Source: an uncultured Candidatus Saccharibacteria bacterium
GTDB taxonomy: Bacteria > Patescibacteriota > Saccharimonadia > Saccharimonadales > Saccharimonadaceae
Reading direction: 5' to 3'
NCBI GenBank assembly: GCA_946414465.1
Contig: CAMKOP010000003.1
Span: 15,162 to 79,161, forward strand
DNA length: 64,000 nt
Shown here: positions 1 to 15,024 of the stretch, piece by piece
How positions within the stretch are numbered: position 1 is the stretch's first letter
Layout of the letters: each line of letters starts with the position of its first letter
Translations under genes and position numbers: made by a program
Notes under the pieces: generated by a model
Database searches by the model: none
What the model was told of the DNA's origin: nothing
What the model saw: only the letters and a program-made list of their open reading frames with translations

Positions 1-1
1 T

Positions 2-91
2 GGCTCAGCAGTCGACCCAACATCTGTAAATATAGCGGTCTTTGGGCAGTTAGCTTCACCTGAATATTTCGTTTGGAAGCGAACGGCATAA
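2..91 (+). other. Silent tail-fibre C-terminal cassette 0 (3' end only, truncated by window edge)
   Basis: Frame 2 reads ...GQLASPEYFVWKRTA* and shares the xxW(K/R)RTx* ending with the fibre C-terminus and cassettes A and B. No start codon or RBS. Confidence 0.5.
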
Positions 92-107
92 TAAGAAGTT
101 TTGTTAA

Positions 108-125
108 AAGACCGTGACAATGCCG
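108..125 (+). repeat. Candidate crossover site (cassette A)
   Basis: AAGACCGTgACAaTGcCG, 15/18 identical to the fibre-gene site at 823-840 (reverse complement). Confidence 0.5.
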
Positions 126-368
126 TATAAGCTTAGGTTTTCGGAGTACTATCGTTCTTTGGCAGCAATGACATTATCTTTGTATGACGAAGAAACAGGT
201 GCCTGGAAAACCGGCTCTAAGGTATCGGACAAGACCGTGCCTGTTAATAAGGCTGCCACAGAAAGTATGTCCGACAAATCAATGGCACATTACGAAGTGA
301 TTGGTAAAATAAAAGGCTCAGTCGTCCAGCCTTATATTACCGTCTATATGTGGCGAAGAACTGCATAA
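108..368 (+). other. Silent tail-fibre C-terminal cassette A
   Basis: Begins with AAGACCGTGACAATG (K-T-V-T-M, same frame as the fibre site). Ends ...QPYITVYMWRRTA*. No ATG or RBS; the ORF-track start is a GTG inside the site. Confidence 0.6.
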
Positions 369-386
369 TTCTCCCTGTTCTTGCAT

Positions 387-617
387 CAGACCGTAACATT
401 GACGGTTAAGCAAATCCCCTCGCACACCCATAATCTATTATGTGGGTATGGTGATGTTGGCAATCCGACAATGACTACCGACGCCCTAAGGTATCAGTAT
501 TGGGGTGGAAATAACAGGGGTTGGCATAACTTTTTGACGCAAAAAACTGGTGGCGGAGAGGCTCACGAGAATATGCCTCCGTATTTAACAGTTTATATGT
601 GGCGTAGGGTTAGCTAG
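387..617 (+). other. Silent tail-fibre C-terminal cassette B (tail-collar type)
   Basis: Reads QTVTLTVKQIPSHTHNL...GGGEAHENMPPYLTVYMWRRVS*, paralogous to the last ~76 aa of the fibre. No RBS. Its 3' end overlaps the fibre stop by 8 nt. Confidence 0.7.
388..404 (+). repeat. Candidate crossover site (cassette B), left arm of a perfect 17-bp inverted repeat
   Basis: AGACCGTAACATTGACG is the exact reverse complement of 823-839. Confidence 0.65.
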
Positions 618-2775
618 TGCGTCTCCACATATAACAAGTTAGATATGGCTGAAGGTTGTTGTGGGCTTTGCCACCACCTGCTGGTGCTGTTTTATTTCCC
701 CAACCACTCGTATTATTTGCACCGTTCGTAAGTAAGGTTTGCCAGTTGCTACCACCGTTTTGACCCTTAACATCGTTATTGATGTGTGCCGAAAGGTGTT
801 GATGGCTTGGAATTTGCTCAAGCGTCAATGTTACGGTCTTACTACCTCCACTCTTATTTGACGCATTAAAATCTGTATCATTCGTATCGACACCGACAGG
901 CACTTTACCAGCACCCCACGGCTGCCATGTTCCACCAAGAAATGTTTGTGGCGAAACATTATTCACGCTCATGTAGATTGAGCCTACTGGGTAAACATAA
1001 GTCAGCAAGTCGCTCTTAGAGATGAGCTTTGCTGTATTATGTGCATACACACTACCAGAGGAGATTATGTCTCCCTCGACCTCAAGTTGACCGTTATTTT
1101 GCCCTTTGTCAACTTGAGGCTTCCTACCGACCGAACATCTGCCATCTTCACCAATAAAGAACTTAGGGATGCCGACAGTAAGAACTAAGTCAATAGTAGT
1201 TGAACTAAATGCGTCAGTCGCTTTAACTTGAATATCCCATTGATAATTATTATCGAGTGTAATTGCGTAGTCTTGAATAGACCAGTTGTTTCCAGATGGC
1301 GTATTTGGTCTTGTTTGCCAATTTCCCCAGTTGGATTCTGATGATTTTTTGGTTCGAAATTGAACAGTAAGTGTATTTTTCGTTGCGTTGTTTACGATGA
1401 TTGGAGCGTAAGTACCGTGGATTTTTAAGGTCGTCTCGGATTCAAATCCATTAGTTCTTTCCGCACTAGCAACGACTGTCGGTGCAGACCATGGGTATAC
1501 CGTCACATCTTTAGAGACAGCTGTAGATAGCGATAATTCGTCTACGGCAGATACTTTTAATGCGAGCGTGCCGTTCTGGCTTGGTGCTAATAATGTTTGA
1601 GATACCGCACTAGACGATGAATAGCCGAGCGTATAAGTGCTACCACTAAATGAAATTGCGTAGTTAGAGATTGCGACATTATCATTACCTGTAGCCTTAT
1701 CACTTGTAGAGACTGTGACTACTGGAGTTGATTGCCCCTGAATTAATGCATGAGAGTCACCAGTCAAAGCAATAGCATCAGCGTTCGTGTCGGCATAATC
1801 AAAGTTACTAAAATTTGGCGAGATGTGTGTGGTTTTAGTTGTGAAGGTTGTCGAAATGACCATTGAATCACCTGCCGTAGTAGTAAGTTTGGCTTGCAAA
1901 ATCACGCTTTTATCGGTAGGTATTCCTGAAGCTGTGAATGTTCCGGATGAAGTTGTTATCGTACCCGCAGATGTCCATGCTGTATATGTCGTACCGCCAT
2001 CGGTTGAATATCTATAATTGAGTGTTCTCGCCAAAGCACCACCATCAGATTGACGAGTCCAATCAATTACTGCATTGACGGTATTATATGTTTTATATGT
2101 CTGGCTAAATAATGACAATGTCGAGAGTGGGGGACATGGTGTCGTGAATGTTCCGGCTACCGTACTGATGTTTCTTTGAGTGTTATTTGCATATGCACCA
2201 TAGTGGTAAGTAGTATTGCCAGTAATCGTAAGAGCTGTAGAACCTTGGCTTGAGCTATTATCGACAGTTAGTTCTGCCGATGTAACATTTGAAGCCTTGG
2301 CGTAGCGATAAGGGTTACCATATGTACTACTACCGAGAATTGCCGCCTCGATATAGCGACCATTCGTAGAGCCTGGAGTACCGTAAGATGATATGGAAAC
2401 ATTAAATACTGCAGAATTGTATGTTTTACTCTTAATTGAAACCGACAATCCAGTAGGATTAGAGTACCCACTTGGAATATAGCCTGTGCCAGAATAATTG
2501 ACAGTACCAGAATACCAAGGACAAGTATAGGAAACTGTCCTATTGCCAGCCGGTAATGAGCCAGTCCATAAAGTACAGTTTCCAGAAACCGTTTTCTGTC
2601 CAAGGTTTGTTCCATTAACAGTAAAATTATTGAAATAGACATAGATACTAGCACCAGGCTTAAGCTCAAAAATAACTCTAGAGCTACGACTTTCACCGGT
2701 AGAGGCGTCATCGTATTGCAATCTAGTATAGCCATATCCACCTGTATCGATTGATGCTACTGTTACCCAACTCAT
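610..2775 (-). CDS. Phage tail fibre / receptor-binding protein with tail-collar C-terminal domain
   Basis: 721 aa, Ser/Thr/Asn/Gly-rich beta-type sequence. The C-terminus ...TLEQIPSHQH...GGGKAHNNLQPYL.. matches the phage tail collar domain pattern. Confidence 0.85.
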   Translation of the reverse strand: MSWVTVASIDTGGYGYTRLQYDDASTGESRSSRVIFELKPGASIYVYFNNFTVNGTNLGQKTVSGNCTLWTGSLPAGNRTVSYTCPWYSGTVNYSGTGYIPSGYSNPTGLSVSIKSKTYNSAVFNVSISSYGTPGSTNGRYIEAAILGSSTYGNPYRYAKASNVTSAELTVDNSSSQGSTALTITGNTTYHYGAYANNTQRNISTVAGTFTTPCPPLSTLSLFSQTYKTYNTVNAVIDWTRQSDGGALARTLNYRYSTDGGTTYTAWTSAGTITTSSGTFTASGIPTDKSVILQAKLTTTAGDSMVISTTFTTKTTHISPNFSNFDYADTNADAIALTGDSHALIQGQSTPVVTVSTSDKATGNDNVAISNYAISFSGSTYTLGYSSSSAVSQTLLAPSQNGTLALKVSAVDELSLSTAVSKDVTVYPWSAPTVVASAERTNGFESETTLKIHGTYAPIIVNNATKNTLTVQFRTKKSSESNWGNWQTRPNTPSGNNWSIQDYAITLDNNYQWDIQVKATDAFSSTTIDLVLTVGIPKFFIGEDGRCSVGRKPQVDKGQNNGQLEVEGDIISSGSVYAHNTAKLISKSDLLTYVYPVGSIYMSVNNVSPQTFLGGTWQPWGAGKVPVGVDTNDTDFNASNKSGGSKTVTLTLEQIPSHQHLSAHINNDVKGQNGGSNWQTLLTNGANNTSGWGNKTAPAGGGKAHNNLQPYLTCYMWRRTS
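823..840 (-). repeat. Candidate crossover site inside the expressed tail-fibre gene
   Basis: The minus-strand sense AAGACCGTAACATTGACG encodes K-T-V-T-L-T at the start of the variable tail-collar C-terminus. Confidence 0.65.
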
Positions 2776-2777
2776 TT

Positions 2778-4733
2778 TTACTCCTTTGGTACGAACGCCC
2801 AGCCATCAGACTGTGGCACTATCTTTAGAGGTGGCATATCTATCTCGTTTTCGGCAGAAATACTTTTAGTATGAACACCATCATTGTTAATAAAGCTACT
2901 CTCGGAATTGCTATCGAATATAATTAGTCCTTGCGAGTCAAGCTTGCTGTATGCTCCATGGAGATTTGAGTTCGTAATCTTTACGCCAGTAGTATCAATA
3001 GCTACTTGTGTATTTGCAAACTCGCCATTGGCTTGAGACCAATTCGAACGATAATTGCCGACAGCTAACATCATATCTGTAATTGAGAACTCAGAATCGG
3101 ATGAGCCAAACACCTCGATTGTTAATTGCGTAGACATCGGCAATATGCCCTCGATACTGAAATCTTCCCAAGTTGACGATTCGCCATTATCTAGACTAAT
3201 CTCCCAAACTCCGTGTTCGGTACCGTCAGTAATTCTTACATAACATGTACCAGTTGCAGTCTTCTTTATGCGACAAGAAAAGGAGTAGTATATCTTCGAA
3301 CTTTCTGAAATAGAAGAGTCGTCAGCACTAACTGCTACTCTTTGAATTGCTGTCTTTCCGATTAACGATATAGCTTGTCCAGAAAGTGAGCCATAGACCG
3401 TAGCTTCAGCAGATGGTTGAACGATTAAATCACCAGCTTGCGAGAAGTTCCAATAATCTGGTAGTTGAGTATCGGAATTAATCGAGTACATGGCAGAGTT
3501 CTTGATAAGGTTATTACCGCCAGAATTTTGTACAGATGTCACGACATTATTGATTGTTTGATGAATCTCCGTATAGTTATCGTTTACTTGACCTTCGAGA
3601 GATGTCATCTCTTGGACGATAGACTGAATCTCTTGATTCTGTTTGTCGACTTTAATCTGAGTATTATAGATAGTCTTCGTTATGCCGCCAGCCAATGCGT
3701 AATCTGTCTGGGTTTCTGTCGGCGTCACACCTTTAATTGTTTCCTTAATGCCGCCATCAACAGTAAGTTTGATGTCTGTAATTATTACATCCCAAGAGTT
3801 GTTGCCATCTGTAATCGTAATCATATCGCCAATTTCATACCAACCATGACCTTCCGTATCAGCTTCAAATGGATACCATTCGAAGCCATCAACTGCATCA
3901 AGAATAGGTTGAGCAAGCAACTCCCTATCATCGTCAAGAATCTCATTATTTGCAAGCTTTAATTCGGTTAATCCGTGTAGCTCGACACTTTCGTTATCAA
4001 CTACGGCGATGTTGTCTTCTTGTGGAGTACGAGCAAGTACGACGCTGTTTACAGGACCATATTTGGGCTTAATTGAATATTTCTTGAGATTATCATATGT
4101 CAGAATCTCAGATGACTCCAATGGTGGAGCTATTACTCTTAAAGTATCCGTAATGCCATCAATTAAGATAAGTGAAGCAGTAGCTCCAGCTATCTCGGAA
4201 AGAATATCACGATAGGTAATATCATTGATTCGAGCATATAAGTCTTCAGCAATCATATAACTACCATTAGTCAGAGACCGTACGTCGTACACGAGATTGT
4301 ATTTAGCGACAATCTGTGCAACTAGGTTCTCGACGGTGGTAGGAAATGTAATATTCGAGTCATATTCCTGAGTTGCCATCTGACCGAGCTTATCGTAAGC
4401 CGAGAAGATAGTGAATCCTTTCTCGATGTCTGATTTTTGCTCATAAATCTTAAAGTTGCCGAGATAACAATCTTCCCATAAGTCTTGCACGGAGTCGGTG
4501 CAAACACTCATAGTAACACCAACGGTTTCGCCGACAAGATTATACTCGTTGCCAAGCAGCTTGAATGTCAGAGCCTTAGTTGCAGAACGAAAATAATACC
4601 CAGCCGATTCGACCGTAAATGACATGAGACTGTCGGCAGACGAATAAGATTCCTGCTCACCAACAATAGTGGCTTTAATAACCTTCACAGGCTCACCCAT
4701 GGCTTGTTTGAATGCTTGCGATACCTCAATCAT
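2778..4733 (-). CDS. Phage tail tip / Tal-like (prophage tail endopeptidase family-like) structural protein
   Basis: 651 aa, immediately upstream of the fibre. The N-terminal half resembles siphophage tail-associated proteins, and the central part is coiled-coil-like. Assignment is from recalled family patterns only. Confidence 0.65.
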   Translation of the reverse strand: MIEVSQAFKQAMGEPVKVIKATIVGEQESYSSADSLMSFTVESAGYYFRSATKALTFKLLGNEYNLVGETVGVTMSVCTDSVQDLWEDCYLGNFKIYEQKSDIEKGFTIFSAYDKLGQMATQEYDSNITFPTTVENLVAQIVAKYNLVYDVRSLTNGSYMIAEDLYARINDITYRDILSEIAGATASLILIDGITDTLRVIAPPLESSEILTYDNLKKYSIKPKYGPVNSVVLARTPQEDNIAVVDNESVELHGLTELKLANNEILDDDRELLAQPILDAVDGFEWYPFEADTEGHGWYEIGDMITITDGNNSWDVIITDIKLTVDGGIKETIKGVTPTETQTDYALAGGITKTIYNTQIKVDKQNQEIQSIVQEMTSLEGQVNDNYTEIHQTINNVVTSVQNSGGNNLIKNSAMYSINSDTQLPDYWNFSQAGDLIVQPSAEATVYGSLSGQAISLIGKTAIQRVAVSADDSSISESSKIYYSFSCRIKKTATGTCYVRITDGTEHGVWEISLDNGESSTWEDFSIEGILPMSTQLTIEVFGSSDSEFSITDMMLAVGNYRSNWSQANGEFANTQVAIDTTGVKITNSNLHGAYSKLDSQGLIIFDSNSESSFINNDGVHTKSISAENEIDMPPLKIVPQSDGWAFVPKE

Positions 4734-4742
4734 CTAAATACC

Positions 4743-5114
4743 TCACAACTTGCTTACAGGCACTAATGAGACCGTAAAGCTTTTATATAAGCCCCTGGAC
4801 TTATCTAGAAGCTCCGGTTCGTAATCTCCTGCATAATATCTAGCAGTCACCGTGTTTTTAACTTTTGGTGAGAAATATGTGACATCGAAATATGGTTGGT
4901 CAAGCAAAGCGATAATGTCGCTCACTTCGTTTTCTGTTAAAGCATCACGAAATGTAAGCTCTATCTTAGGGAAGATGCCGATAAGAGTAGCACGAACATC
5001 GCCGTTCATGTTACGGTCGGCATCCTTCCAGAGCTTGTTATAGCCTATCTTGTAGCCGGAAAGACCACGGATTGTATTGCCGTTAATCTTTAATAAGTCA
5101 CCAGAGTAAGCCAT
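4743..5114 (-). CDS. Phage tail component (Dit-like?), 123 aa
   Basis: The ATG at 5112-5114 overlaps the upstream stop (TAATG coupling). Position is between the lysin and the Tal-like gene. Start trimmed from the ORF-track 5174. Confidence 0.5.
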   Translation of the reverse strand: MAYSGDLLKINGNTIRGLSGYKIGYNKLWKDADRNMNGDVRATLIGIFPKIELTFRDALTENEVSDIIALLDQPYFDVTYFSPKVKNTVTARYYAGDYEPELLDKSRGLYKSFTVSLVPVSKL

Positions 5115-6028
5115 TATTTCCGCCTTTCGATTATGTCTCCAGCATAAAGTCCAACGCCTGATTTCGAGTGCCACCCATCATAAACTGATTGACCAGGTTT
5201 AACCTTAGTTGAATACCAAGTCTTTGCGTAGGCATCCATAACTGAACCGTATTGAACATAGCCTTCGCACATTTTCATGATTGCACCAAGGGTGTCACCA
5301 TTTACGACATTGATAACATCACATGAAGCTACCGGCTCTGGTGTCGGTTCAGGCGTTGGTTGCGGAGTGTAGTCACCAGGAACCACCCATTTATAGCCAC
5401 TAATATTCATGTTGTGAGTAGCGACCCTGAGTGGTGAATAGTTGGCATCATTTACCATCGCAGTATTCATACCAGTTGAATAGAGATACATCACGGTGTG
5501 ACCATATTGAGTATTGAATCCGCCTGAGCCGATAGCACCAGCGACAGGTTGGTCGATATACTTGAAACCATAGTTTTTTACGAGATAAGCTGCAACATCT
5601 TTACCATTTACAGGACCGTAGTCCGGATGTGCTGTCGAATATTCTCTACGACCAGTTGCGAGATATGCAGTATATTTCGAGCATTGCCAACCTTTACCAC
5701 CGTCATTATCTCCGTCCGGTAGTCGACGAGCTAAGATTTGGTCGATTGAAGTTGAGAAACCTAGACCAACTTCTTCTTGGTCATTAGCCTCAATCGTCTC
5801 TTCATCTGTTGCCGGCTCGTTATTCATCATTTCTTCAAGACGAGCATTAGCATCATTGATGAAATCTTCGGTGTACTTTTCAATTTTGGCATTATTGCCA
5901 TCAAGAGTAATACTTCCGTTTTCGGCTTTAGTACCATAGAGAATAAATGCAGTACAGAGCAATGCGACACCTAAAACAATAAAGAAAGCGATATGGTTAC
6001 TGAGCCATTTCTTAACCTTATTCATCAC
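5114..6028 (-). CDS. CHAP-domain peptidoglycan hydrolase with N-terminal TM anchor and LysM-like C-terminus
   Basis: TM segment FFIVLGVALLCTAFILYG. CHAP Cys (GKGWQCSKYTAYL) and His (YGHTVMYLY) motifs. PT-rich linker followed by NVVNGDTLGAIM. Confidence 0.8.
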   Translation of the reverse strand: MMNKVKKWLSNHIAFFIVLGVALLCTAFILYGTKAENGSITLDGNNAKIEKYTEDFINDANARLEEMMNNEPATDEETIEANDQEEVGLGFSTSIDQILARRLPDGDNDGGKGWQCSKYTAYLATGRREYSTAHPDYGPVNGKDVAAYLVKNYGFKYIDQPVAGAIGSGGFNTQYGHTVMYLYSTGMNTAMVNDANYSPLRVATHNMNISGYKWVVPGDYTPQPTPEPTPEPVASCDVINVVNGDTLGAIMKMCEGYVQYGSVMDAYAKTWYSTKVKPGQSVYDGWHSKSGVGLYAGDIIERRK

Positions 6029-7066: not shown

Positions 7067-8161
7067 ATGGCTCAAAAGTACAATGTTATTGACTTGTTTG
7101 CCGGTGTCGGAGGTCTTAGTTTTGGTTTTGCAGAAATGAAAGAATTTAACATTGTTGCTGCAAATGAAATCTTGCCTGACATTGCCAAGTCATACGAACT
7201 CAACCACCCAAATGCAAATGTACTAGCATGCGACATTGCAGACTTAACAGAAGAAAAACTAAAAGAAGCAACAAACGGTCAAAAGATTGACCTTATTGTC
7301 GGTGGACCTCCTTGCCAGTCGTATTCTACTCTCGGCAAGAGACAAATGGATGATAGGGCTAACCTTTTTACTCAATACAAGAGAATTCTCGAAATCTTAC
7401 AACCGAAAGCATTCATCTTTGAAAATGTTTCAGGTCTACTAAGTATGCAAGGTGGCAAACTTTTTCCAAAGATTAGAAGTGAATTTGAAAGTATCGGCTA
7501 CAACCTAAAATATAAACTTCTAAACGCCGTAGAATATGGCGTACCGCAAGAACGAAAGCGTATTATTTTAGTTGGCTTTAAGGGTGAAAACACATTCGAA
7601 TATCCAGAACCTACTCACGGTGAAGGTAAGGGTCTGAAACCATTTGTAACACTAGAAGATGCAATCGGAGATTTACCGGTAATTAAAAGTGGCGAAGAGA
7701 ATAATACCTACGCAAAAGAACCAGATAATGATTTCTTAAAATTCGTCAGAAGGAACGGCACAACTGTTCTCACCGAACACTCAGCACCTAAAAATAACCC
7801 TCAACTTATTGCCCTAATGGAAGCCCTAGGTGATGGTCAGGACAAAAATGACTTACCAGAAGAGTTGAGGCCAAAGAGTGGATATGGTAATACATATGCA
7901 AAGTTGTGGTGGAAGCGTCCATCTACTACAATCACCAGGAACTTCTCATGCCCTTCGTCATCAAGGTGCATCCATCCAAGAGACTCAAGAGCGTTAAGTA
8001 ATCGTGAAGGAGCAAGGCTTCAGAGTTTTCCAGACGATTACAAGTTCTATGGTTCGCAGACAAGTATTAAACTAGGTATCGGAAATGCCGTACCATGCCT
8101 ATTGTCGAGAGCATTAGCAAAACAAATGCTTAAGGCATTACAGGCTTCAGAAGATAAATAA
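7067..8161 (+). CDS. DNA (cytosine-5)-methyltransferase of an R-M system
   Basis: Motifs DLFAGVGG (I), GGPPCQSYS (IV), ENV (VI), QERKR (VIII), GNAVP (X). Confidence 0.92.
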   Translation: MAQKYNVIDLFAGVGGLSFGFAEMKEFNIVAANEILPDIAKSYELNHPNANVLACDIADLTEEKLKEATNGQKIDLIVGGPPCQSYSTLGKRQMDDRANLFTQYKRILEILQPKAFIFENVSGLLSMQGGKLFPKIRSEFESIGYNLKYKLLNAVEYGVPQERKRIILVGFKGENTFEYPEPTHGEGKGLKPFVTLEDAIGDLPVIKSGEENNTYAKEPDNDFLKFVRRNGTTVLTEHSAPKNNPQLIALMEALGDGQDKNDLPEELRPKSGYGNTYAKLWWKRPSTTITRNFSCPSSSRCIHPRDSRALSNREGARLQSFPDDYKFYGSQTSIKLGIGNAVPCLLSRALAKQMLKALQASEDK

Positions 8162-8177
8162 TACACAAAATTCAATT

Positions 8178-8202
8178 AAGTCCTCTTAGTGAGGACTTTT
8201 TT
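8178..8202 (+). terminator. Rho-independent terminator
   Basis: AAGTCCTC-ttagt-GAGGACTT followed by TTTT. Confidence 0.7.
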
Positions 8203-8248
8203 GATGAACTATTACCATAAGCTGTTATAATTGGAAGTATGACATGTT

Positions 8249-8274
8249 CACTTATTGTCTGTAGACTTATTGTC
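8249..8274 (+). promoter_or_regulatory. C-box-like operator (tandem repeat around a TGTA spacer)
   Basis: CACTTATTGTC-TGTA-GACTTATTGTC resembles the C.PvuII-family C-box layout GACTnnnAGTC-TGTA-GACTnnnAGTC. It lies ~34 nt before the C-gene ATG. Confidence 0.6.
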
Positions 8275-8307
8275 TGATTGCTGTCAAAATTGAGGATAGT
8301 AATAATT

Positions 8308-8523
8308 ATGTGTGGAATTTTACTAAAAACATTCGCAAGCAATCTAAAGAAGTATAGGCTGGAAGCTGGATTATCCCAGGAAAAACTAGCCGACTTATGT
8401 GAGCTGCACAGAACTTATATTAGCGATATTGAGCGTGGCGAAAGAAACATTTCGCTCAGCAATGTCGAAAGGCTATCGAAAGCCCTTAAAATTCCCGCTT
8501 CTAAACTATTAGAAGAGGAATAA
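8308..8523 (+). CDS. Controller (C) protein, XRE-family HTH
   Basis: 71 aa; GLSQEKLADLCELHRTYISDIERGERNISLSNVERLSKAL is a typical C-protein HTH. Start trimmed to the ATG at 8308. Confidence 0.8.
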   Translation: MCGILLKTFASNLKKYRLEAGLSQEKLADLCELHRTYISDIERGERNISLSNVERLSKALKIPASKLLEEE

Positions 8524-9192
8524 ATGGGCGCATTCGTAGGTGTATCAAAGCTATTTGGAAACAAAATAATAGAATATGCCAAAAAGGCGGGATATTCAGA
8601 AGACAATATTTTGATTCTCTCTGGAGATGAAATCGAATTAGCGAAGAAATACCCAGAGACTTACCGGAACCTTCTTTCCTGTAGACATCACGCTGACAGA
8701 AGGGCTGCTATTGATTATGGCAAAGACCTAGTTGCCTCGTGGCTATTCGAGGACTACCTTTTTGATATTCTCAAAAATCACTCCGAGACTTTTACGGTTT
8801 CTCTATCTGGCGCAGACAAAGAACGCAAAATTCTTGCGAGAGCAAGGACTTCTTCTACTAGTGACTATGAAATCATCTATAAGGATGGCACTACACGCAA
8901 AATGGAATTAATGAATGATTATTCTGGCTATTGGGCTAAAAATAATCGTCTCGACTTAAGAGATAGTAAATACAACAAGCTCAGGAACGAGAGCGCTCTC
9001 CTATTAGCTATCGCAGTAGGAGAACAGAGATTCTCCATAATCGATTTTTCAAAAGAAATCGACTCGACCTATATTGCAAATCATCCACCATACGGTTTTA
9101 AGCCGGCATATCAAATACCGATAAATAGCGAAGCGATGATTGAGTTGAAATCAGAAAAACTAATTAACGAATTATCTAAATATAAGGAGTAA
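8524..9192 (+). CDS. Hypothetical protein, candidate restriction endonuclease subunit
   Basis: 222 aa, translationally coupled to the C gene (TAAATG). No clear catalytic motif recognised. Confidence 0.4.
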   Translation: MGAFVGVSKLFGNKIIEYAKKAGYSEDNILILSGDEIELAKKYPETYRNLLSCRHHADRRAAIDYGKDLVASWLFEDYLFDILKNHSETFTVSLSGADKERKILARARTSSTSDYEIIYKDGTTRKMELMNDYSGYWAKNNRLDLRDSKYNKLRNESALLLAIAVGEQRFSIIDFSKEIDSTYIANHPPYGFKPAYQIPINSEAMIELKSEKLINELSKYKE

Positions 9193-9196
9193 AAAG

Positions 9197-10039
9197 ATGG
9201 ACGAACACAGAGATAGGTCAAGCGGATGGAGACACGCAAAGCTCTCCGGTCACAGCAATGAAGAGTTGGTATGTGAAATGTTGCGTAACGATAAAGCTCA
9301 ACAGGAACGACTCTTAAAAACAATAGGTGATACAGATGCCACAATAGTCAGCTGTGATTATGGCGGATTACATGAGACTAATGTTCCAAGCATCATGGGC
9401 GGAACTACTAAAAATAAGGCAGATTTGACTGTCAGATTAAGCAACGGCAAAAGTGTCGGTATATCCATTAAAAAGAGTCTGGCTGGTCAGGTGTTCCTTA
9501 TTAGGGATGAAAACTTCATGAAAGGTTTTGAGCTACAATATGGCAAAACCATACCTGAAGATGTAAAGCGTGCAATAACTCTATTTTGGGGTTCAGCAAA
9601 GGACACTACATCGGTCATTAATACTTATAGCTCTGACTATACAATTAAGAAATATGAGCTTCATAAGAATAGGCTAACCGCACAGACTCTAAGAAAATAC
9701 GACCCATCGCTTTGCAGTACACTTCTCGATTGGTTTAAGGACAATATTTACGACATTACGGATTACTGTTTCGCAAGAGGCCAGGCGAGAGACAAAGACG
9801 ACAGAGCTACAATCATCTGGTACATTAATCTTCTAGGCGAACATGATGTTGATGAAATGCACCATATCGATACGCTATGCGAAGCCGTTGAGAATAGTAA
9901 AAGCGTAATTCAATATGGAAACAGAGGCGGAGGCACAACAATCACTCTTCCTTTTGGTTTCGTACAATGGCATCAAACACAGATGCAATTCCATCATCAA
10001 TATAAGATGATTGAGCAGCTCAATATCAAGAGCTACTAA
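9197..10039 (+). CDS. Candidate restriction endonuclease (PD-(D/E)XK-like)
   Basis: 280 aa; the KADLTV...GISIKKS spacing resembles a D...(S/E)xK nuclease core. Last gene of the C-controlled operon. Confidence 0.5.
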   Translation: MDEHRDRSSGWRHAKLSGHSNEELVCEMLRNDKAQQERLLKTIGDTDATIVSCDYGGLHETNVPSIMGGTTKNKADLTVRLSNGKSVGISIKKSLAGQVFLIRDENFMKGFELQYGKTIPEDVKRAITLFWGSAKDTTSVINTYSSDYTIKKYELHKNRLTAQTLRKYDPSLCSTLLDWFKDNIYDITDYCFARGQARDKDDRATIIWYINLLGEHDVDEMHHIDTLCEAVENSKSVIQYGNRGGGTTITLPFGFVQWHQTQMQFHHQYKMIEQLNIKSY

Positions 10040-10499
10040 AATAATCGTCGATTATCTTTTGAGCTTCGTCGAAACCTGTAGCAAACTCAGCCTTATATCT
10101 GCATTTTCTTAGCCACTCTAACATAGCTTGTTGCTCTTCAAGGTGTTGGTCTTTCTTTAGAGTTCCGTCTTTTTTGAATGGCGAATTACCTTCAGCTTTA
10201 AGTTCGAGATATAGACCCGCGTATAAATGCTCAACTATTACTTTTGCCATACCAAAATCTTTGCCATGTTTTTCAAATGCCTCAAGGTTTTCTTTTTCTG
10301 TAGGGATTTTGAATACTGGATATGCAATGAATAAGTCCGGATACCCCCTCTTTGGGTGGAGTTTCTTGAACTTAGCAGCTTGTCCTTTAGTTAGCTTTAA
10401 GTCTGCTGCTACATCGAACCGATAAACAACACTAGGATAATGTCTCTGAAGATACTGTGCTATTTTTATATATAATTGATGCTCTCTATCTACTAGCAT
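10026..10499 (-). CDS. VRR-NUC domain nuclease (phage)
   Basis: RGYPDLFIAY ... LYLELKAEG fits the VRR-NUC PD-(D/E)XK pattern. Confidence 0.8.
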   Translation of the reverse strand: MLVDREHQLYIKIAQYLQRHYPSVVYRFDVAADLKLTKGQAAKFKKLHPKRGYPDLFIAYPVFKIPTEKENLEAFEKHGKDFGMAKVIVEHLYAGLYLELKAEGNSPFKKDGTLKKDQHLEEQQAMLEWLRKCRYKAEFATGFDEAQKIIDDYFSSS

Positions 10500-11647
10500 A
10501 ACAACTCCCCAAGAATTGCAACAAGGACATCAACTACGATTGAATTGCCAGCTTGCTTGTATAGTTGTGCATTTGAAATGCCAATAGCTTGTGCCTTTTC
10601 TATATCCGAATCATCGAATCCCATCAATCTCCAACATTCTTTTGGCGTTAGCTTGCGAATACGAACATTAGGAGGTAATGTAGCATAACCAAGGCAATCT
10701 GGCCTCGTTGTTAATGTTGGCATAACTCCGTTATTACTTTCGATATATTTATCAAGAGTGCTTCGTTGCTCGCTCGTAGTATACGAATGATTAATAATCT
10801 CACCACCTTTCACCACGCCATCTTTGACCAGTTTATTGCATAAATTAGTCTTTAGATTCACCTTGATGAAATTATCTGTCGGTCTTTGACCTGGTGCAGT
10901 AGTAATGGAATTAGCTCTATCTTGGTCTTTGCGATTAATATTTGCCAGGAATCGTTCTTTGCGTGGGAACTTGCTTGGCTTCTGGTTTACTCCCATAAAA
11001 TAATTCATCATGTTTTCAGAGATAAAATATTTTTCATCTACTTCGTCTTCAAGCATATCTTTGAGTTTTTTCTTTAACTCTCTTGGTTTTGGAAAATCGA
11101 AGGCATTGAAATTGTTATATTTCCTATCCCAGACATCTTCACGAATACTTACAGTAAATACACGCTCACGGTTTTGCGGAATGCCATAATCTTTCGCATT
11201 TAATACTTGAAATGAACTGACATAGCCAAGTTGTCTCATCGATTCAATGTAGGCATCAAAGTTGTGGCGATGTTTTTTAGAAAGCAGATTTTTAACATTC
11301 TCCCAAATCACAAATTTAGGATGAAGCTTGTCGACGATTCGCAATGTCTCATACATCAAGCTTGAACGAGTACCACTACCTTCATCGCCGCCAGCTTGTC
11401 TGCCAGCGACGGAAAAGTCCTGACATGGCGAGCCGTGCATAATAAGGTCTACATCAACATCTTTATCCCATTTTGTAATATCTTGTGGCTCAAAATTTGT
11501 TCCATGAATGGCATTGAAACTTTTAATCGCATACTTATCAATCTCGACTGCATCAACTATCATATGTGGTATCAGTAAACGGTCTAGGGCTTTCGAGCAA
11601 GCACCAATTCCCGCAAATAATTCAAGGACTTTCAAGTGCTCATTCAT
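10493..11647 (-). CDS. Phage DNA (cytosine-5)-methyltransferase (no cognate nuclease apparent)
   Basis: Motifs LELFAGIGA, GSPCQDFSVAG, ENV, QNRER, GNSIVV. Confidence 0.92.
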   Translation of the reverse strand: MNEHLKVLELFAGIGACSKALDRLLIPHMIVDAVEIDKYAIKSFNAIHGTNFEPQDITKWDKDVDVDLIMHGSPCQDFSVAGRQAGGDEGSGTRSSLMYETLRIVDKLHPKFVIWENVKNLLSKKHRHNFDAYIESMRQLGYVSSFQVLNAKDYGIPQNRERVFTVSIREDVWDRKYNNFNAFDFPKPRELKKKLKDMLEDEVDEKYFISENMMNYFMGVNQKPSKFPRKERFLANINRKDQDRANSITTAPGQRPTDNFIKVNLKTNLCNKLVKDGVVKGGEIINHSYTTSEQRSTLDKYIESNNGVMPTLTTRPDCLGYATLPPNVRIRKLTPKECWRLMGFDDSDIEKAQAIGISNAQLYKQAGNSIVVDVLVAILGELLC

Positions 11648-12801: not shown

Positions 12802-12974
12802 AATTCTTCGTATTCCTCCTTTGAATGTCCGTAGACTTTTATCGAATGAGCTATTGCACCTTTTAGACCTGCCAGCCTAGCTCGTTCACGACCGGTCAGA
12901 CCATCGCTACCTATATTTTGTGAAGCAAATCCTCCTTTACCATGTCCTTTGCCTTTATGTGTTCCGTCACTCAT
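12762..12974 (-). CDS. Small Gly/Lys-rich protein, KGG-repeat stress-protein-like
   Basis: GKGHGKGGFASQN... resembles the KGG motif family. Overlaps the next gene by 40 nt. Confidence 0.4.
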   Translation of the reverse strand: MSDGTHKGKGHGKGGFASQNIGSDGLTGRERARLAGLKGAIAHSIKVYGHSKEEYEELWQKKVSSAKSEH

Positions 12975-13765
12975 TAGAAACTCAATCCTTCAATCTTTGA
13001 TGCCAGTTCATCGATTCGCTTGAGACTCGCTTTTTCAAAAGCTCTTGCTTCGGCGAGTCGTTCCTCGACATCATTGCGATTAATATCGAATATTTGAAGT
13101 TCAAGCCCTGGAATAAGGTCGGTGAAGATAATGAAATGTAATGTCTCCAAATCTTCGTTGACCATGAAATATTTCAAGACTTGTGGCTCATACTCTTTTG
13201 GATAATGGTTTTCGTCAAAGCATTTAATAACTTCAGCAGACGAAAGGCATTTAACTTCGCAAGCCTCACGAACTTTGCCATCCTTACCAGTAATTGCACC
13301 ATCTGGACTTACATATGCATTCTCATCATAGTCAGACACCCAAACAACCGATTCTTCATCGACTTTCTTACCGGTCTTTTCCTCGAATGCTGCAATAGCT
13401 TCAGGTTCGAGAATATGACCACGAGCCATCATCGAGAATGGTTCGCCATTGAGTTTGTCTTCGTAATCATTTGGGGTTACAGGGCGAGCGACGCGGTCTG
13501 CAACAATCTCATAAAAGTGTTTCTTTGGCTCAGATTCGAGCTTAAGTTCAGCAAGTTCATTTGGCTCAAGCATTCCTGCAAGCTCTTGAACGGTGCATCG
13601 TTTGTCTTCTGGTGATAATGGATTTTCTCGCTCAAGCCTCTCGATGATTTTCGCTTTAAGTGGGAGACCAGGAATCCAAAGGTCTTTGAACTCAGAGCCA
13701 CCAGATTTTCCTTTGCGAAACTCCAACCATTCTTCTGAGTTTTGTTGTAGTTTAATAACTTTCAT
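12974..13765 (-). CDS. YqaJ-like viral recombinase exonuclease
   Basis: The N-terminus MKVIKLQQNSEEWLEFRKGKSGGSEF matches the YqaJ pattern. RBS GGAGAGG precedes the ATG at 13765. Start trimmed. Confidence 0.8.
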   Translation of the reverse strand: MKVIKLQQNSEEWLEFRKGKSGGSEFKDLWIPGLPLKAKIIERLERENPLSPEDKRCTVQELAGMLEPNELAELKLESEPKKHFYEIVADRVARPVTPNDYEDKLNGEPFSMMARGHILEPEAIAAFEEKTGKKVDEESVVWVSDYDENAYVSPDGAITGKDGKVREACEVKCLSSAEVIKCFDENHYPKEYEPQVLKYFMVNEDLETLHFIIFTDLIPGLELQIFDINRNDVEERLAEARAFEKASLKRIDELASKIEGLSF

Positions 13766-14033
13766 TTCTAATCCTCTCCATTGTTTCTCTACGGATGTCT
13801 GCCAATGCCTCTTCACGAGCAGATGGCTCGAAATAATCCTCAACATATTCATCAACTTTCGGCGTAATATGTTTTTCGACTATTTCGTGTATTGCGTTGT
13901 AAATCATGGTGTTTAATTCTTCGCCGCAATCCGGCATATCCATGACCAAATCTTCGGTGATTTCATCGGAATCCTTAGCACGATGTTCGCCGATTAGGAT
14001 GCAATCTTCTAAAAAGCTTTCTGGAATCGTCAT
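13752..14033 (-). CDS. Phage hypothetical acidic protein
   Basis: 93 aa, coupled into the operon. Confidence 0.45.
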   Translation of the reverse strand: MTIPESFLEDCILIGEHRAKDSDEITEDLVMDMPDCGEELNTMIYNAIHEIVEKHITPKVDEYVEDYFEPSAREEALADIRRETMERIRNESY

Positions 14034-14863: not shown

Positions 14864-14893
14864 AAAAAAGCCGGCTTCGCAATGAAACCGGCT
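14864..14893 (-). terminator. Rho-independent terminator (minus)
   Basis: AGCCGG / CCGGCT stem followed by a T-run on the minus strand. Confidence 0.55.
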
Positions 14894-14901
14894 CTAACAA
14901 C

Positions 14902-14934
14902 AAAAAATCTCGCTAGAATTTCTTCTAACGAGAT
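14902..14934 (-). terminator. Rho-independent terminator downstream of tRNA-Ala (minus)
   Basis: 12-bp stem with one mismatch, loop TTTC (GAAA on the minus strand), then a T-run on the minus strand. Confidence 0.65.
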
Positions 14935-14948
14935 TAAATAAGCTTAAT

Positions 14949-15024
14949 TGGTGGAGTGTGCGAGACTCGAACTCGCCACCTCAGCTATGCCATAGCTGCG
15001 CTCTACCGGATGAGCTAACACCCC
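14949..15024 (-). tRNA. tRNA-Ala (GGC), CCA encoded
   Basis: Manual cloverleaf: acceptor GGGGTGT with G3:U70, anticodon loop AT-GGC-AT, T-loop TTCGAGT. Confidence 0.9.

Follow-up and report, generated by a model that had tools for sequence, protein, structure and literature searches.

In the inversion systems of p15B (Min), Mu (Gin, G segment) and P1 (Cin, C segment), the constant part of the tail-fibre gene lies outside the invertible DNA, which holds the variable C-termini. In Gin and Cin the entire segment is flipped by an outer pair of inverted repeats, and several internal sites give Min many combinations; all of these features recur in the locus described here. In the three systems, a serine invertase of the Din family is encoded beside the segment, the sites are dyad-symmetric and 26 bp long, and an enhancer that depends on Fis takes part. 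The R64/IncI1 shufflon (Rci, sfx, pilV) is also similar to our locus in that its segments invert singly or in groups and thereby choose one C-terminal end of a single adhesin, although this adhesin belongs to a plasmid pilus rather than to a phage fibre and rci adjoins the shufflon. Its sfx sites consist of one conserved arm, a spacer and a non-conserved other arm, and they are known to undergo inversions only. This is the architecture that we propose below for the sites of our locus.

A phage counterpart is the Rin shufflon of Bifidobacterium prophages (Mavrich et al. 2018, PMC6109161). As in the present locus, the phages are temperate siphophages in which a constant N-terminus of the receptor-binding protein (RBP) is accompanied by several promoterless variable C-terminal cassettes, with short asymmetric crossover repeats in the gene and at the head of each cassette; there too, inversions were found by comparing prophages, and the chemistry of a tyrosine (XerD-like, armless) recombinase was proposed (PMC6109161). 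The same paper contains a simpler bifidophage inversion at an 8-bp repeat, without a flanking recombinase. The tail-fibre shufflon of BV01-like Phocaeicola phages (PMC13596623, 2026 preprint) resembles our locus: in this gut temperate phage, a multi-cassette array of ~1.7 kb extends over the 3' end of the fibre gene, the motifs are directional (10 bp, with extensions), and the configuration varies among contigs. It differs in its flanking recombinase and in its cassettes, which alter stop positions instead of swapping homologous half-domains (PMC13596623). The motif of that system, TGGGAGAACT, is absent here, and the rix repeat of Rin, TTCCCTAACCC, has no copy in our array, its two 1-mismatch matches lying far off in host DNA at chance level.

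The locus analysed here lies at the left end of the window, by which we mean the whole 64-kb stretch of DNA under study. We conclude that it is very probably a DNA-inversion switch of the shufflon type for the receptor-binding end of a tail fibre. An initial sequence-only reading had proposed such a multi-cassette switch of the fibre C-terminus. The features it described are all found at the positions it gave, and the proposal is now backed by inversions among relatives (contigs numbered with L), purifying selection, tips found fused to fibres elsewhere and a recombinase in the element family. Switches of this kind have precedents in Min, Rin and R64-type shufflons; here the host is little studied and no invertase gene adjoins.

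The switch sits in a temperate siphophage prophage that is integrated at tRNA-Ala of a Candidatus Saccharibacteria (TM7; Nanosyncoccus-like) chromosome. The 58-bp attachment core (14948..15005) is the 3' part of tRNA-Ala (14949-15024) and is 100% identical to positions 42-99 of a close relative's contig, L055, where it adjoins a Xer-like integrase gene. This core forms the right boundary of the switch-bearing element, so that the prophage portion of the window is 1-14.9 kb, with host housekeeping genes from 15.2 kb onward. Pfam and PHROGs scans place the fibre gene downstream of Dit-like (DUF6711) and Tal-like genes on a common strand.

The fibre gene (610..2775, minus strand, stop at 610-612) has AAGGAG upstream of its own ATG and encodes 721 aa comprising an N-terminal anchor, a DUF859 shaft and a C-terminal Gp10_C knob; in Rin, the corresponding fold is a TP901-1-type RBP head. 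Gp10_C (PF21939) matches aa 591-720 (E 1.6e-31, 110.6 bits against a curated gathering cut-off of 27 bits) and DUF859 is also matched, in agreement with the tail-collar-type C-terminus, ending in GGGKAHNNLQPYLTCYMWRRTS, that had been noted at first. Codons 1-576 (1048..2775, minus strand) make up a constant part that lies outside all invertible segments and has a dN/dS of 0.04-0.05 against L003 and L004. The proximal half of the knob (aa 585-645; 841..1023, minus strand), which only outer-site inversion would swap, accompanies the long silent cassette in L001 and L004. A PDB sequence match to the T4 gp10 C-terminal domain covers this half only, at about fibre aa 587-644 (query residues 26-83 of the C-terminal 160-aa fragment). 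The expressed distal tip, tip 0 (613..822, minus strand), forms aa 646-721 together with the inner site, contains an HxH motif and differs among otherwise similar fibres. The fibre is collinear with L001, L004 and L005 down to exactly position 1024, and with L002/L003 down to 824, the latter homology ending at the inner site. AlphaFold modelled the C-terminal 160 aa at low quality (pLDDT 63), so the model lends no structural support to the switch reading.

Beyond the fibre stop, the plus strand carries the fragments ending at 91, 368 and 617 that had been described as silent cassettes, separated by gaps of 0-20 nt. Cassette B (387..617, 76 aa from QTVTLT to the stop, ending in PPYLTVYMWRRVS) overlaps the fibre stop by 8 nt and matches Gp10_C at profile positions 63-139 with 37.3 bits, above the cut-off. 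Cassette A (108..368, 86 aa from KTVTMP to the stop, ending in QPYITVYMWRRTA) has a TAA stop codon directly upstream of its site and a second in-frame AAGACCGTG core at 231-239. Only its last 20 aa match Gp10_C, at 20.2 bits and under the cut-off, and among the full-length fibres of the protein database none was found to carry its tip type. The fragment at 1..91, ending in PEYFVWKRTA, had been taken for a third cassette like A and B; we find it rather to be the 3' end of a longer C-terminal domain with a different crossover site. This cassette C is the tail of an alternative knob of ~162 aa and of another type, homologous to the end of a long cassette in L053 that starts YAHNTARLLEE at a copy of the outer site and abuts a 121-aa gene adjoining the tape-measure gene. 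By comparison with L053, the inverted outer-site copy of cassette C should lie ~400 nt beyond the left end of the window. Fibres of 727-738 aa (e.g. P0042, P0043, P0061) have this domain type as their expressed C-terminus.

Two classes of crossover site are found in the fibre gene. The inner site (site 2, AAGACCGTAACATTGACG, 823-840, minus strand) covers codons K646-T651 (KTVTLT) and recurs on the plus strand at the head of cassette B (CAGACCGTAACATTGACG, 387-404, 1 mismatch) and of cassette A (AAGACCGTGACAATGCCG, 108-125, 3 mismatches, some in the presumed arm). With up to 3 mismatches allowed, the 64 kb contain these three matches against 0.05 expected, and no shuffle reached three, so the shared (K/Q)-T-V-T sites reported at first stand far above chance. 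The inverted-repeat arms extend over 31 nt at 90% identity (388-418 / 809-839) and 25 nt at 76% (108-132 / 816-840). The 64-kb window has the 8-mer AAGACCGT at no positions other than 108, 231, 833 and an unrelated one in host DNA, 49582. The outer site (site 1, TATGCACATAATACAGCAAAGCTC, 24 bp, 1024-1047, minus strand) covers codons Y577-L584 (YAHNTAKL), on the N-terminal border of the knob; it is single-copy in the window, can be aligned across six copies, and forms an inverted pair in L001 (11729-11752 and 13225-13248). Relatives carry 3-6 sites each, in both orientations. In the site copies the downstream side is conserved and the upstream side unrelated, and a weak ACCGT/ACGGT dyad in cassette B is absent from the other copies. 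Unlike those of the Din family, the sites are asymmetric and lack two inverted 12-bp half-sites, and the cassettes travel without a tail-fibre assembly gene.

Inversion in silico yields uninterrupted fibres of 721 aa (tip B), 731 aa (tip A) and 690 aa (231 core), which agrees with the in-frame fusion anticipated from the sequence. Two elements that define a shufflon are thus present: repeats in both orientations with one copy inside the target gene, and in-frame fusion of alternative C-termini to one constant N-terminus. On the arrangement of these sites the switch is two-tiered, the outer site predicted to swap the whole knob and the inner site only the distal 76-86 aa. Rin, by comparison, has a single site class, while here two nested classes would swap a domain or a half-domain.

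Inversions that distinguish relatives indicate that both site classes are in use, and from these relatives we infer switching in the window's own prophage. L015 and L017, assemblies of a single phage that come from different samples and have an identical fibre protein, share flanks of 4741 and 656 bp at 100.000% identity and differ by the inversion of a 462-bp cassette segment. The inverted segment shows two mismatches only, both in imperfect arm ends, and the exchange point lies inside the 16-bp block AGGAAGTAACATTGAT. L004 and L005 are collinear at 93%, with segment 12341-12793 inverted at 96.2% and two tips exchanged; this exchange maps within TAAGACCGTA. Outer-site inversions distinguish L003 from L004 and the window from L001, where window 803-1047 is inverted at 99.2% identity; the window and L001 also differ in cassette content. 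Contig ends are a further sign of switching: both ends of L180 break exactly at the TAAGACCGT core, and the one end of L053 within the array breaks at the fibre's inner site, as expected from a branch in the read graph.

We propose the following mechanism. Fibre codons 1-576 would stay in place throughout. In the outer tier, the gene site at 1024-1047 would recombine with its inverted counterpart at the array's far end, just left of the window, so that the whole array flips and the Gp10_C knob is exchanged for the unrelated ~162-aa knob of cassette C. In the inner tier, 823-840 would recombine with an inverted copy at a cassette head and exchange the distal 76-86 residues (tips 0, B, A). Each fusion would be in frame, and the ousted tip would turn into a silent cassette. 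The reaction itself would be of the conservative site-specific type, with a tyrosine recombinase acting in trans on sites built from a 6-bp overlap region (AGACCG in the window's clade) and one conserved arm (TAACATTGACG-like), and partner sites would need an identical overlap region. The element's own armless Xer-like integrase is the best candidate for the enzyme, with a host Xer-type enzyme as the alternative. That the locus is a switch and also works by conservative site-specific recombination is, taken as one claim, somewhat probable in our judgement.

The search for a recombinase bears on this proposal. Pfam and PHROGs scans found none in window positions 1-15 kb, as had been reported for the window, and L001-L005, L007, L012-L018 and L054 have none closer than 10 kb to the array, so the dedicated recombinase next to the array that also defines a shufflon is lacking. 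In Rin, an invertase gene distinct from the integrase flanks the array, whereas here the family has one recombinase. No Resolvase match appeared in any Pfam scan, hence no adjacent Resolvase-domain gene as in the Din family in the loci scanned, and phmmer with a Hin sequence matched none of the ORFs of at least 80 aa in all loci. Among the relatives examined, the one site-specific recombinase found is of the armless Xer-like tyrosine type and is encoded beside the attachment site, outside the window and ~15 kb from the array. Its NCBIfam best matches are XerC, XerA and XerD, all below cut-offs. A serine invertase or an Rci-like tyrosine recombinase had been suggested as worth seeking left of position 1; the element family has a tyrosine recombinase gene, at the attachment site and not beside the array. 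Of the Min-like layout proposed at first, the multi-cassette inversion is supported and the serine invertase is not.

In three other clades, partner sites have in every case the same 6 nt immediately before the TAAC... arm, and these 6-mers differ by partner set (AGACTG, AGGAAG and TGTGTA in one group; AAACTG and AGACCG in another). In the 33-kb genome containing L015, the 9-mer TAACATTGA is confined to the four shufflon sites and a perfect 12-6-12 dyad ~155 nt downstream of the Xer-like integrase gene; a second phage has kept this dyad. In the window's clade, the integrase has the tRNA-Ala core as its attachment site, with no TAACATTGA dyad nearby; the link to the enzyme is therefore shown only for the dyad-bearing clade, whose integrase is 46-48% identical to that of the window's clade. 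We also raise, as a tentative possibility that we would not call likely, that a single prophage Xer-like recombinase, or host Xer, both integrates the phage and runs a hierarchical host-range switch through heterospecific 6-bp overlaps, which would divide the sites into an outer pair for the whole knob and private inner sets for the tips. If this dual role were true, the locus would be a phage shufflon without a dedicated invertase, programmed like engineered lox/FRT spacer variants, and no programmed host-range switch would have been described before it in viruses of the Candidate Phyla Radiation.

The same switch could instead be driven by homology, with short coding repeats recombined by host RecA or by a phage YqaJ-type exonuclease and annealing protein, and selection on host range enriching the products. 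The prophage does encode a YqaJ-like exonuclease (12974-13855, Pfam scan), no array has a recombinase nearby, and an identical block shared by partner sites is predicted by this mechanism as well. Moreover, all that the outer core has in common with the inner core in the window's clade is a loose TAAYAYWG pattern, a poor fit to a single sequence-specific enzyme. Efficient RecA or Red-type recombination, however, needs roughly 20-30 bp of identity, and the mapped exchanges lie in identity blocks of just 10 and 16 nt, which counts against it. The inversion between L015 and L017, with zero substitutions in 5.4 kb of flanks, implies that inversion is far more frequent than short repeats would undergo spontaneously, and directly repeated sites persist in L001 and L003 without deletion of cassettes. 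Homology also leaves unexplained the conserved arm with its variable 6-mer and the dyad beside the integrase gene. We therefore regard a homology-driven switch as rather unlikely, and site-specific recombination as the preferred mechanism.

Alternatively, there may be no switch at all, the fragments being relics of duplication and horizontal fibre mosaicism and the inversions rare evolutionary accidents. Mosaicism is notorious in tail-fibre genes, tip types are common to fibres only ~50% identical, and the difference in cassette content between the window and L001 would fit such a history. Relics should decay, yet the silent cassettes show dN/dS of 0-0.12 with dS up to saturation: cassette B differs from L053 by 16 synonymous and 0 non-synonymous substitutions and has a dN/dS of 0.05-0.07 against L001 and L180, cassette A gives pN 0.16 and pS 0.82 against its L180 homologue, and cassette C has a dN/dS of 0.12. 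By these ratios the silent cassettes are under strong purifying selection, as synonymous-codon variation at their conserved C-termini had suggested. The crossover sites, judged by codon usage, are constrained as DNA. Their codons are nearly fixed (ACC 22 / ACT 7; TTG 30/32; ACG 17/22), whereas the C-terminal motif, though just as conserved, is written with all four Thr codons (9/12/8/5) and with six Arg codons, and the cassette-less relatives L008 and L009 show synonymous differences at the position equivalent to the site. In addition, the cassettes hold exact frame registry with the fibre site, L015 and L017 differ by a single inversion between otherwise identical genomes, and one architecture (an expressed knob, an inverted silent knob at the far end and tips between) recurs in several clades. 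Relics are thus an improbable explanation.

It is still less plausible that the fragments are separately translated small genes, such as fibre chaperones or extra tip subunits. Gene callers do predict ORFs of 80-92 aa, some matching Gp10_C, and the cassettes stand in sense orientation downstream of the tape-measure operon, so that they may be transcribed by read-through. None of the cassettes at 1-91, 108-368 and 387-617, however, has an ATG with a Shine-Dalgarno sequence, in line with the first description, and stops (TAA/TAG) stand directly before the site codon, at the K position. Promoter-like matches in 1-3000 show no excess (6 against 7.2 expected from shuffles). The spacing of merely 0-20 nt and the half Gp10_C domain of cassette B, unlikely to fold alone, also speak against small genes, and relatives bear these sequences as fused fibre ends, a tip type that is silent in one genome being expressed in another.

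The least credible explanation is that assembly has gone wrong or that a diversity-generating retroelement is involved, because, although metagenome assemblers may mis-join at repeats and such retroelements also target fibre C-termini, the repeats, at 10-40 nt, fall short of the assembly k-mer length (k141 contigs), independent NCBI, ENA, JGI and Logan assemblies give coherent arrangements, no Pfam scan found a reverse transcriptase domain, and the cassettes differ from the expressed tip throughout and not only at adenines.

The tail-fibre gene of the window (610-2775, minus strand) encodes 721 aa and follows, on the same strand, a DUF6711 (Dit-like) gene and the gene of a 651-aa tail protein. 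Pfam places DUF859 in the middle of the fibre and Gp10_C in its last 130 residues (E 1.6e-31), in agreement with the tail-collar-type C-terminus that the sequence-only reading had assigned to this ORF. Beyond the fibre stop, the three plus-strand frames which that reading described are present: they lack start signals and end at 617, 368 and 91 with the C-terminal motif it quoted. The crossover site it proposed was also recovered, since the 18-mer AAGACCGTAACATTGACG at 823-840 (minus strand; the inner site, codons KTVTLT) recurs inverted in cassette B (387-404, plus strand, 1 mismatch) and in cassette A (108-125, plus strand, 3 mismatches), giving 3 copies in the window against 0.05 expected from shuffles. 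The inverted-repeat arms reach 31 nt at 90% identity and 25 nt at 76%, and the weaker extra core at 231 is represented by the 8-mer AAGACCGT, in frame.

In-silico inversion between the cores leaves the products intact and in frame, as had been foreseen: the fibre becomes 721 aa long with tip B, 731 aa with tip A and 690 aa from the 231 core. The junction of the fibre with cassette B would read GGAGGTAGTAAGACCGTAACATTGACGGTTAAGCAAATCCCC and that with cassette A GGAGGTAGTAAGACCGTGACAATGCCGTATAAGC. The second in-frame core of cassette A, AAGACCGTG at 231-239, which yields the shorter fibre if used, may be a vestige of an earlier cassette boundary. An AlphaFold model of the C-terminal 160 aa of the fibre reached a pLDDT of 63, too weak for a fold search.

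The head/tail/tape-measure operon and the Dit/Tal/fibre operon converge in all relatives, and the cassettes occupy the gap between them. Convergent rather than collinear operons, with the array at their meeting point, are seen in the related contigs L001, L003, L015, L018 and L054. The silent cassettes are thus in sense orientation to the tape-measure operon, on its downstream side. Just beyond the cassette B stop, within the fibre 3' end, a terminator-like hairpin (CACCACCTGCTGGTG, 672-686, plus strand) precedes a T-rich run. The hairpin could end transcription that reads through from the tape-measure operon, and the count of such hairpins is not above chance.

Comparison with the relatives separates two classes of site. 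In BLAST alignments, collinearity of the fibre gene with the window breaks at 824 in L002 and L003, and at 1024 in L001, L004 and L005. The outer site, TATGCACATAATACAGCAAAGCTC (24 bp, 1024-1047, minus strand, codons 577-584, YAHNTAKL), stands where the Gp10_C domain borders the rest of the fibre. L001 has two copies of this block, inverted to each other and 1.4 kb apart, and at the far end of the pair the sequence of window 803-1047 recurs in reverse orientation with 99.2% identity. L001, L004 and L005 express another, longer C-terminal domain (780-aa fibres), and the Gp10_C knob is their silent inverted cassette. To judge from its sequence, the 1.6-kb contig L053 shows what stands to the left of the window: it encodes a protein identical to that of cassette B, then a 162-aa cassette running from an inverted outer-site copy (YAHNTARLLEE...) to ...SPEYFSWKRTA* and homologous to window 1-91, and after it a small gene adjoining the tape-measure gene. 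The domain type of cassette C (1-91, plus strand) is elsewhere the expressed end of 727-738-aa fibres. Together with the L053 homology, this identifies cassette C as an alternative to the whole knob, for exchange at the outer site, and cassettes A (108-368) and B (387-617) as alternatives to its distal half, for exchange at the inner site. The inverted outer-site copy of cassette C is expected some 400 nt left of the window, with the tape-measure gene, head genes and terminase beyond it. The initial description of three like fragments therefore holds for frames and motif, but the fragment ending at 91 is the end of a whole knob. An IMG/VR scan with the 24-base site version returned only the contig already in the comparison set, and a metagenome scan with the 15-base pattern AGACCGTNACNTTGACG was too loose, with only single chance matches among those listed.

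Three comparisons between relatives indicate that inversions happen. L015 and L017, which carry the same 693-aa fibre and come from different samples, are 100.000% identical over 4741 and 656 bp, with a 462-bp segment inverted between them. The inverted segment has only two mismatches, both in imperfect arm ends, which confines the exchange to the 16-bp block AGGAAGTAACATTGAT. L004 and L005 have flanks 93% identical, and segment 12341-12793 is inverted at 96% with two tips exchanged, the exchange falling inside TAAGACCGTA; outer-site inversions distinguish the window from L001, and L003 from L004. Contig L180, with four cassettes including homologues of A and B, has both ends exactly on TAAGACCGT, and the L053 end within the array stops in the inner site of the fibre. 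Such ends are what read-graph branching at a recombination core would produce.

Conservation of the sites extends to the DNA level. Their codons hardly vary among 34 non-redundant cassette records (ACC/ACT, GTA, ACA, TTG in 30/32, ACG in 17/22), while the invariant residues of the C-terminal motif use every synonymous codon freely, which upholds the earlier remark that the conserved termini differ in synonymous codons. The cassette-less L008 and L009 have EEKHTLT at the site position, with synonymous differences there. All site copies share a common TAACATTG-like right arm after a 6-mer identical between partners, and we read them as recombinase sites. In the L015/L014 clades AGACTG marks the expressed knob with its tips and AGGAAG the silent knob with its tips; the outer pair has TGTGTA with arm TAACAATGAAA. 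L007 and L018 have two inner sets (AAACTG and AGACCG); in the clade of the window all inner sites carry AGACCG and the outer pair TGCACA with TAATACAGCAA. A 6-mer shared between partners is the overlap-region logic of tyrosine recombinases, as in lox and FRT sites. By this analogy the 6-mer classes would be overlap regions, and there are hints that they dictate which sites pair.

On the 89,042-nt contig, this region makes up a prophage's right arm. Phage-like genes, among them two C5 methylases, a YqaJ exonuclease and others of no known function, extend to 14.6 kb, followed by tRNA-Ala (14949-15024) and, from 15.2 kb onward, cellular housekeeping genes. Positions 42-99 of the close relative L055 match window 14948-15005, the 3' part of tRNA-Ala, with 100% identity over 58 bp, and adjoin a tyrosine recombinase gene. 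These 58 bp are hence the att core that bounds the prophage, and the integrase falls at the unseen left end. The 30.5-kb contig L054, with a complete tRNA-Ala gene (353-428, within 1-724) between right-end sequence and integrase gene, looks like an excised phage form. Comparison of the distant UViG (IMG/VR virus genome) with the window gave no attP. Contigs with fibre homologues bear the labels Candidatus Saccharibacteria or Nanosyncoccus. Among GenBank phages, megablast returned no match to window 1-3000, and exact-protein look-ups of the window fibre, its Tal-like protein and the cassette A product P0241 found none on record.

No recombinase gene was found in the prophage part of the window, as first stated. 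A local HMM and Hin search likewise gave no recombinase up to 10 kb from the array in any of the relatives, so a Min-like system in the serine-invertase sense is not supported, and that reading was rejected. A recombinase does occur away from the arrays: the relatives examined have one armless Xer-like tyrosine recombinase each, beside att. The 33-kb UViG containing L015 holds only six copies of the 9-mer TAACATTGA: four at shufflon sites and two that pair up as a perfect dyad, AATTCAATGTTA-CTATTA-TAACATTGAATT, about 155 nt 3' of the Xer-like gene. A second phage has the identical dyad with a different spacer. In both IMG/VR phages the dyad (12-6-12, AATTCAATGTTA-N6-TAACATTGAATT; L019 3795-3824 and L021 511-536) lies 3' of the Xer-like integrase gene. 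Its arms are the shufflon-site arm, which links the integrase to the shufflon arms in the UViG clade of L015. On sequence grounds this is the simple core-site layout of a tyrosine recombinase, and the dyad could be attP or a dif-like site used with the host Xer enzyme. In the clade of the window the integrase is 46-48% identical to that of the UViG clade, att is the tRNA core, and neither the dyad nor such an integrase link was found. A host Xer-type enzyme acting in trans is a candidate that would explain both clades.

Other candidates were discarded. Between the att core of the window's clade and the shufflon cores the only similarity was an 11/14 match in L054, which L055 does not share and which was put down to chance; nor is the TCAATGT tandem of L055 conserved. 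The genes between the array and the tape-measure gene encode clade-specific, non-conserved small secreted or membrane proteins, and neither Pfam nor PHROGs nor NCBIfam shows a recombinase signature in the 626-aa DUF4379, 790-, 222-, 280- and 198-aa proteins. Further phages for covariation were the 29.9-kb UViG of L014, without a lysogeny module, and the L021 contig, with a different tail region.

The lack of an adjacent recombinase, the YqaJ exonuclease and the fact that outer and inner cores are unrelated would suit inversion driven by homology instead of a site-specific enzyme. We regard this as unlikely, because the exchange blocks span only 10-16 nt, one inversion has zero flanking substitutions, and direct repeats persist. 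That the cassettes are decaying relics is a poor prospect, given the frame registry and the selection data. Cassette B differs from its L053 counterpart by 16 synonymous and 0 non-synonymous changes and shows dN/dS of 0.05-0.07 against L001 and L180; cassette A against L180 gives pN 0.16 and pS 0.82, and cassette C against L053 dN/dS 0.12, with 0.04-0.05 for the expressed constant fibre part. This synonymous excess supports the original view of maintained cassettes. Identical tip types (e.g. HKHPIPYRTD..., HSHQIRSGW...) form the fibre end in some genomes and sit in silent cassettes in others, and accompany shafts only ~50% identical; tip A is rare, with only two homologues found, both silent. 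Separate translation of the cassettes is scarcely credible with the start signals missing. Least credible of all is an assembly artefact or a DGR, as the assemblies are independent and the Pfam scans found no reverse transcriptase. We conclude that the locus is very probably a real shufflon-type host-range switch.

Phage tail genes that undergo programmed inversion form a recognised class. Among the systems closest to the locus, Min, Gin and Cin are serine invertases, and the R64 shufflon combines Rci with sfx. The others are the Rin shufflon of bifidoprophages, with an adjacent XerD-like invertase and an 11-bp rix site, alongside a simpler bifidophage inversion without flanking recombinase (PMC6109161), and the BV01-like phage shufflon (PMC13596623). 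The locus works like all of these, but the rix and BV01 motifs are absent and it departs from the textbook layout of a dedicated invertase beside the invertible DNA. It adds, in Saccharibacteria prophages, the nesting of a domain-level and a half-domain-level switch in one gene, within the Gp10_C knob; we found no description of such a nested switch in these prophages in the literature. To our knowledge, hardly any work exists on the phages of Saccharibacteria and other CPR bacteria. Three or more maintained interchangeable receptor-binding ends imply variable surface receptors on these tiny epibionts and phages that bet-hedge against receptor variation. Should the integrase, possibly in dual use, or the host Xer be the invertase, simple tyrosine recombinases would have a broader repertoire than is known today. 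For the engineering of Gp10_C-type fibre tips, the cassettes also mark natural places to splice in frame, YAHNTAKL and KTVTLT.

Several neighbouring genes deserve mention. Beside the array, a 1.1-kb segment (L015 13294-14315, L018 13710-14846) holds two small genes (143 and 125 aa) with signal-peptide-like N-termini and is inverted between the two clades at 74% identity; L018 has a 26-bp palindrome at 14884-14909. In the window the C5 cytosine methylase genes (7067-8161, plus strand; 10493-11647, minus strand) bracket three ORFs (222, 280 and 157 aa) without informative family match, the 157-aa one having only an unannotated PHROG match and a faint Holliday-junction-resolvase match. Region 7067-11647 may be a phage-borne restriction-modification or anti-restriction module; L001 and L002 have three methylases instead of two. 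The ORF at 5114-6028, upstream of the Dit-like gene, codes for 304 aa, with a transmembrane segment at the N-terminus and a linker rich in Pro and Thr; in this position relatives encode a CW_7-repeat (lysin-like) protein of 437-439 aa. MuF-like minor capsid proteins in this phage family often bear extra C-terminal toxin-type domains (PF15644, PF18812, weak CdiA_C), and in the UViG (L023, 2433-6264) a Fic/DOC and SocA-like gene pair stands between the MuF and scaffold genes. Finally, the host gene at 29540-36334 has a product of 2264 aa that combines Listeria-Bacteroides repeats and Big_2 domains with a tyrosine-phosphatase-family domain at the C-terminus; by its domains it is a large epibiont surface protein, conceivably a phage receptor or host-attachment factor.
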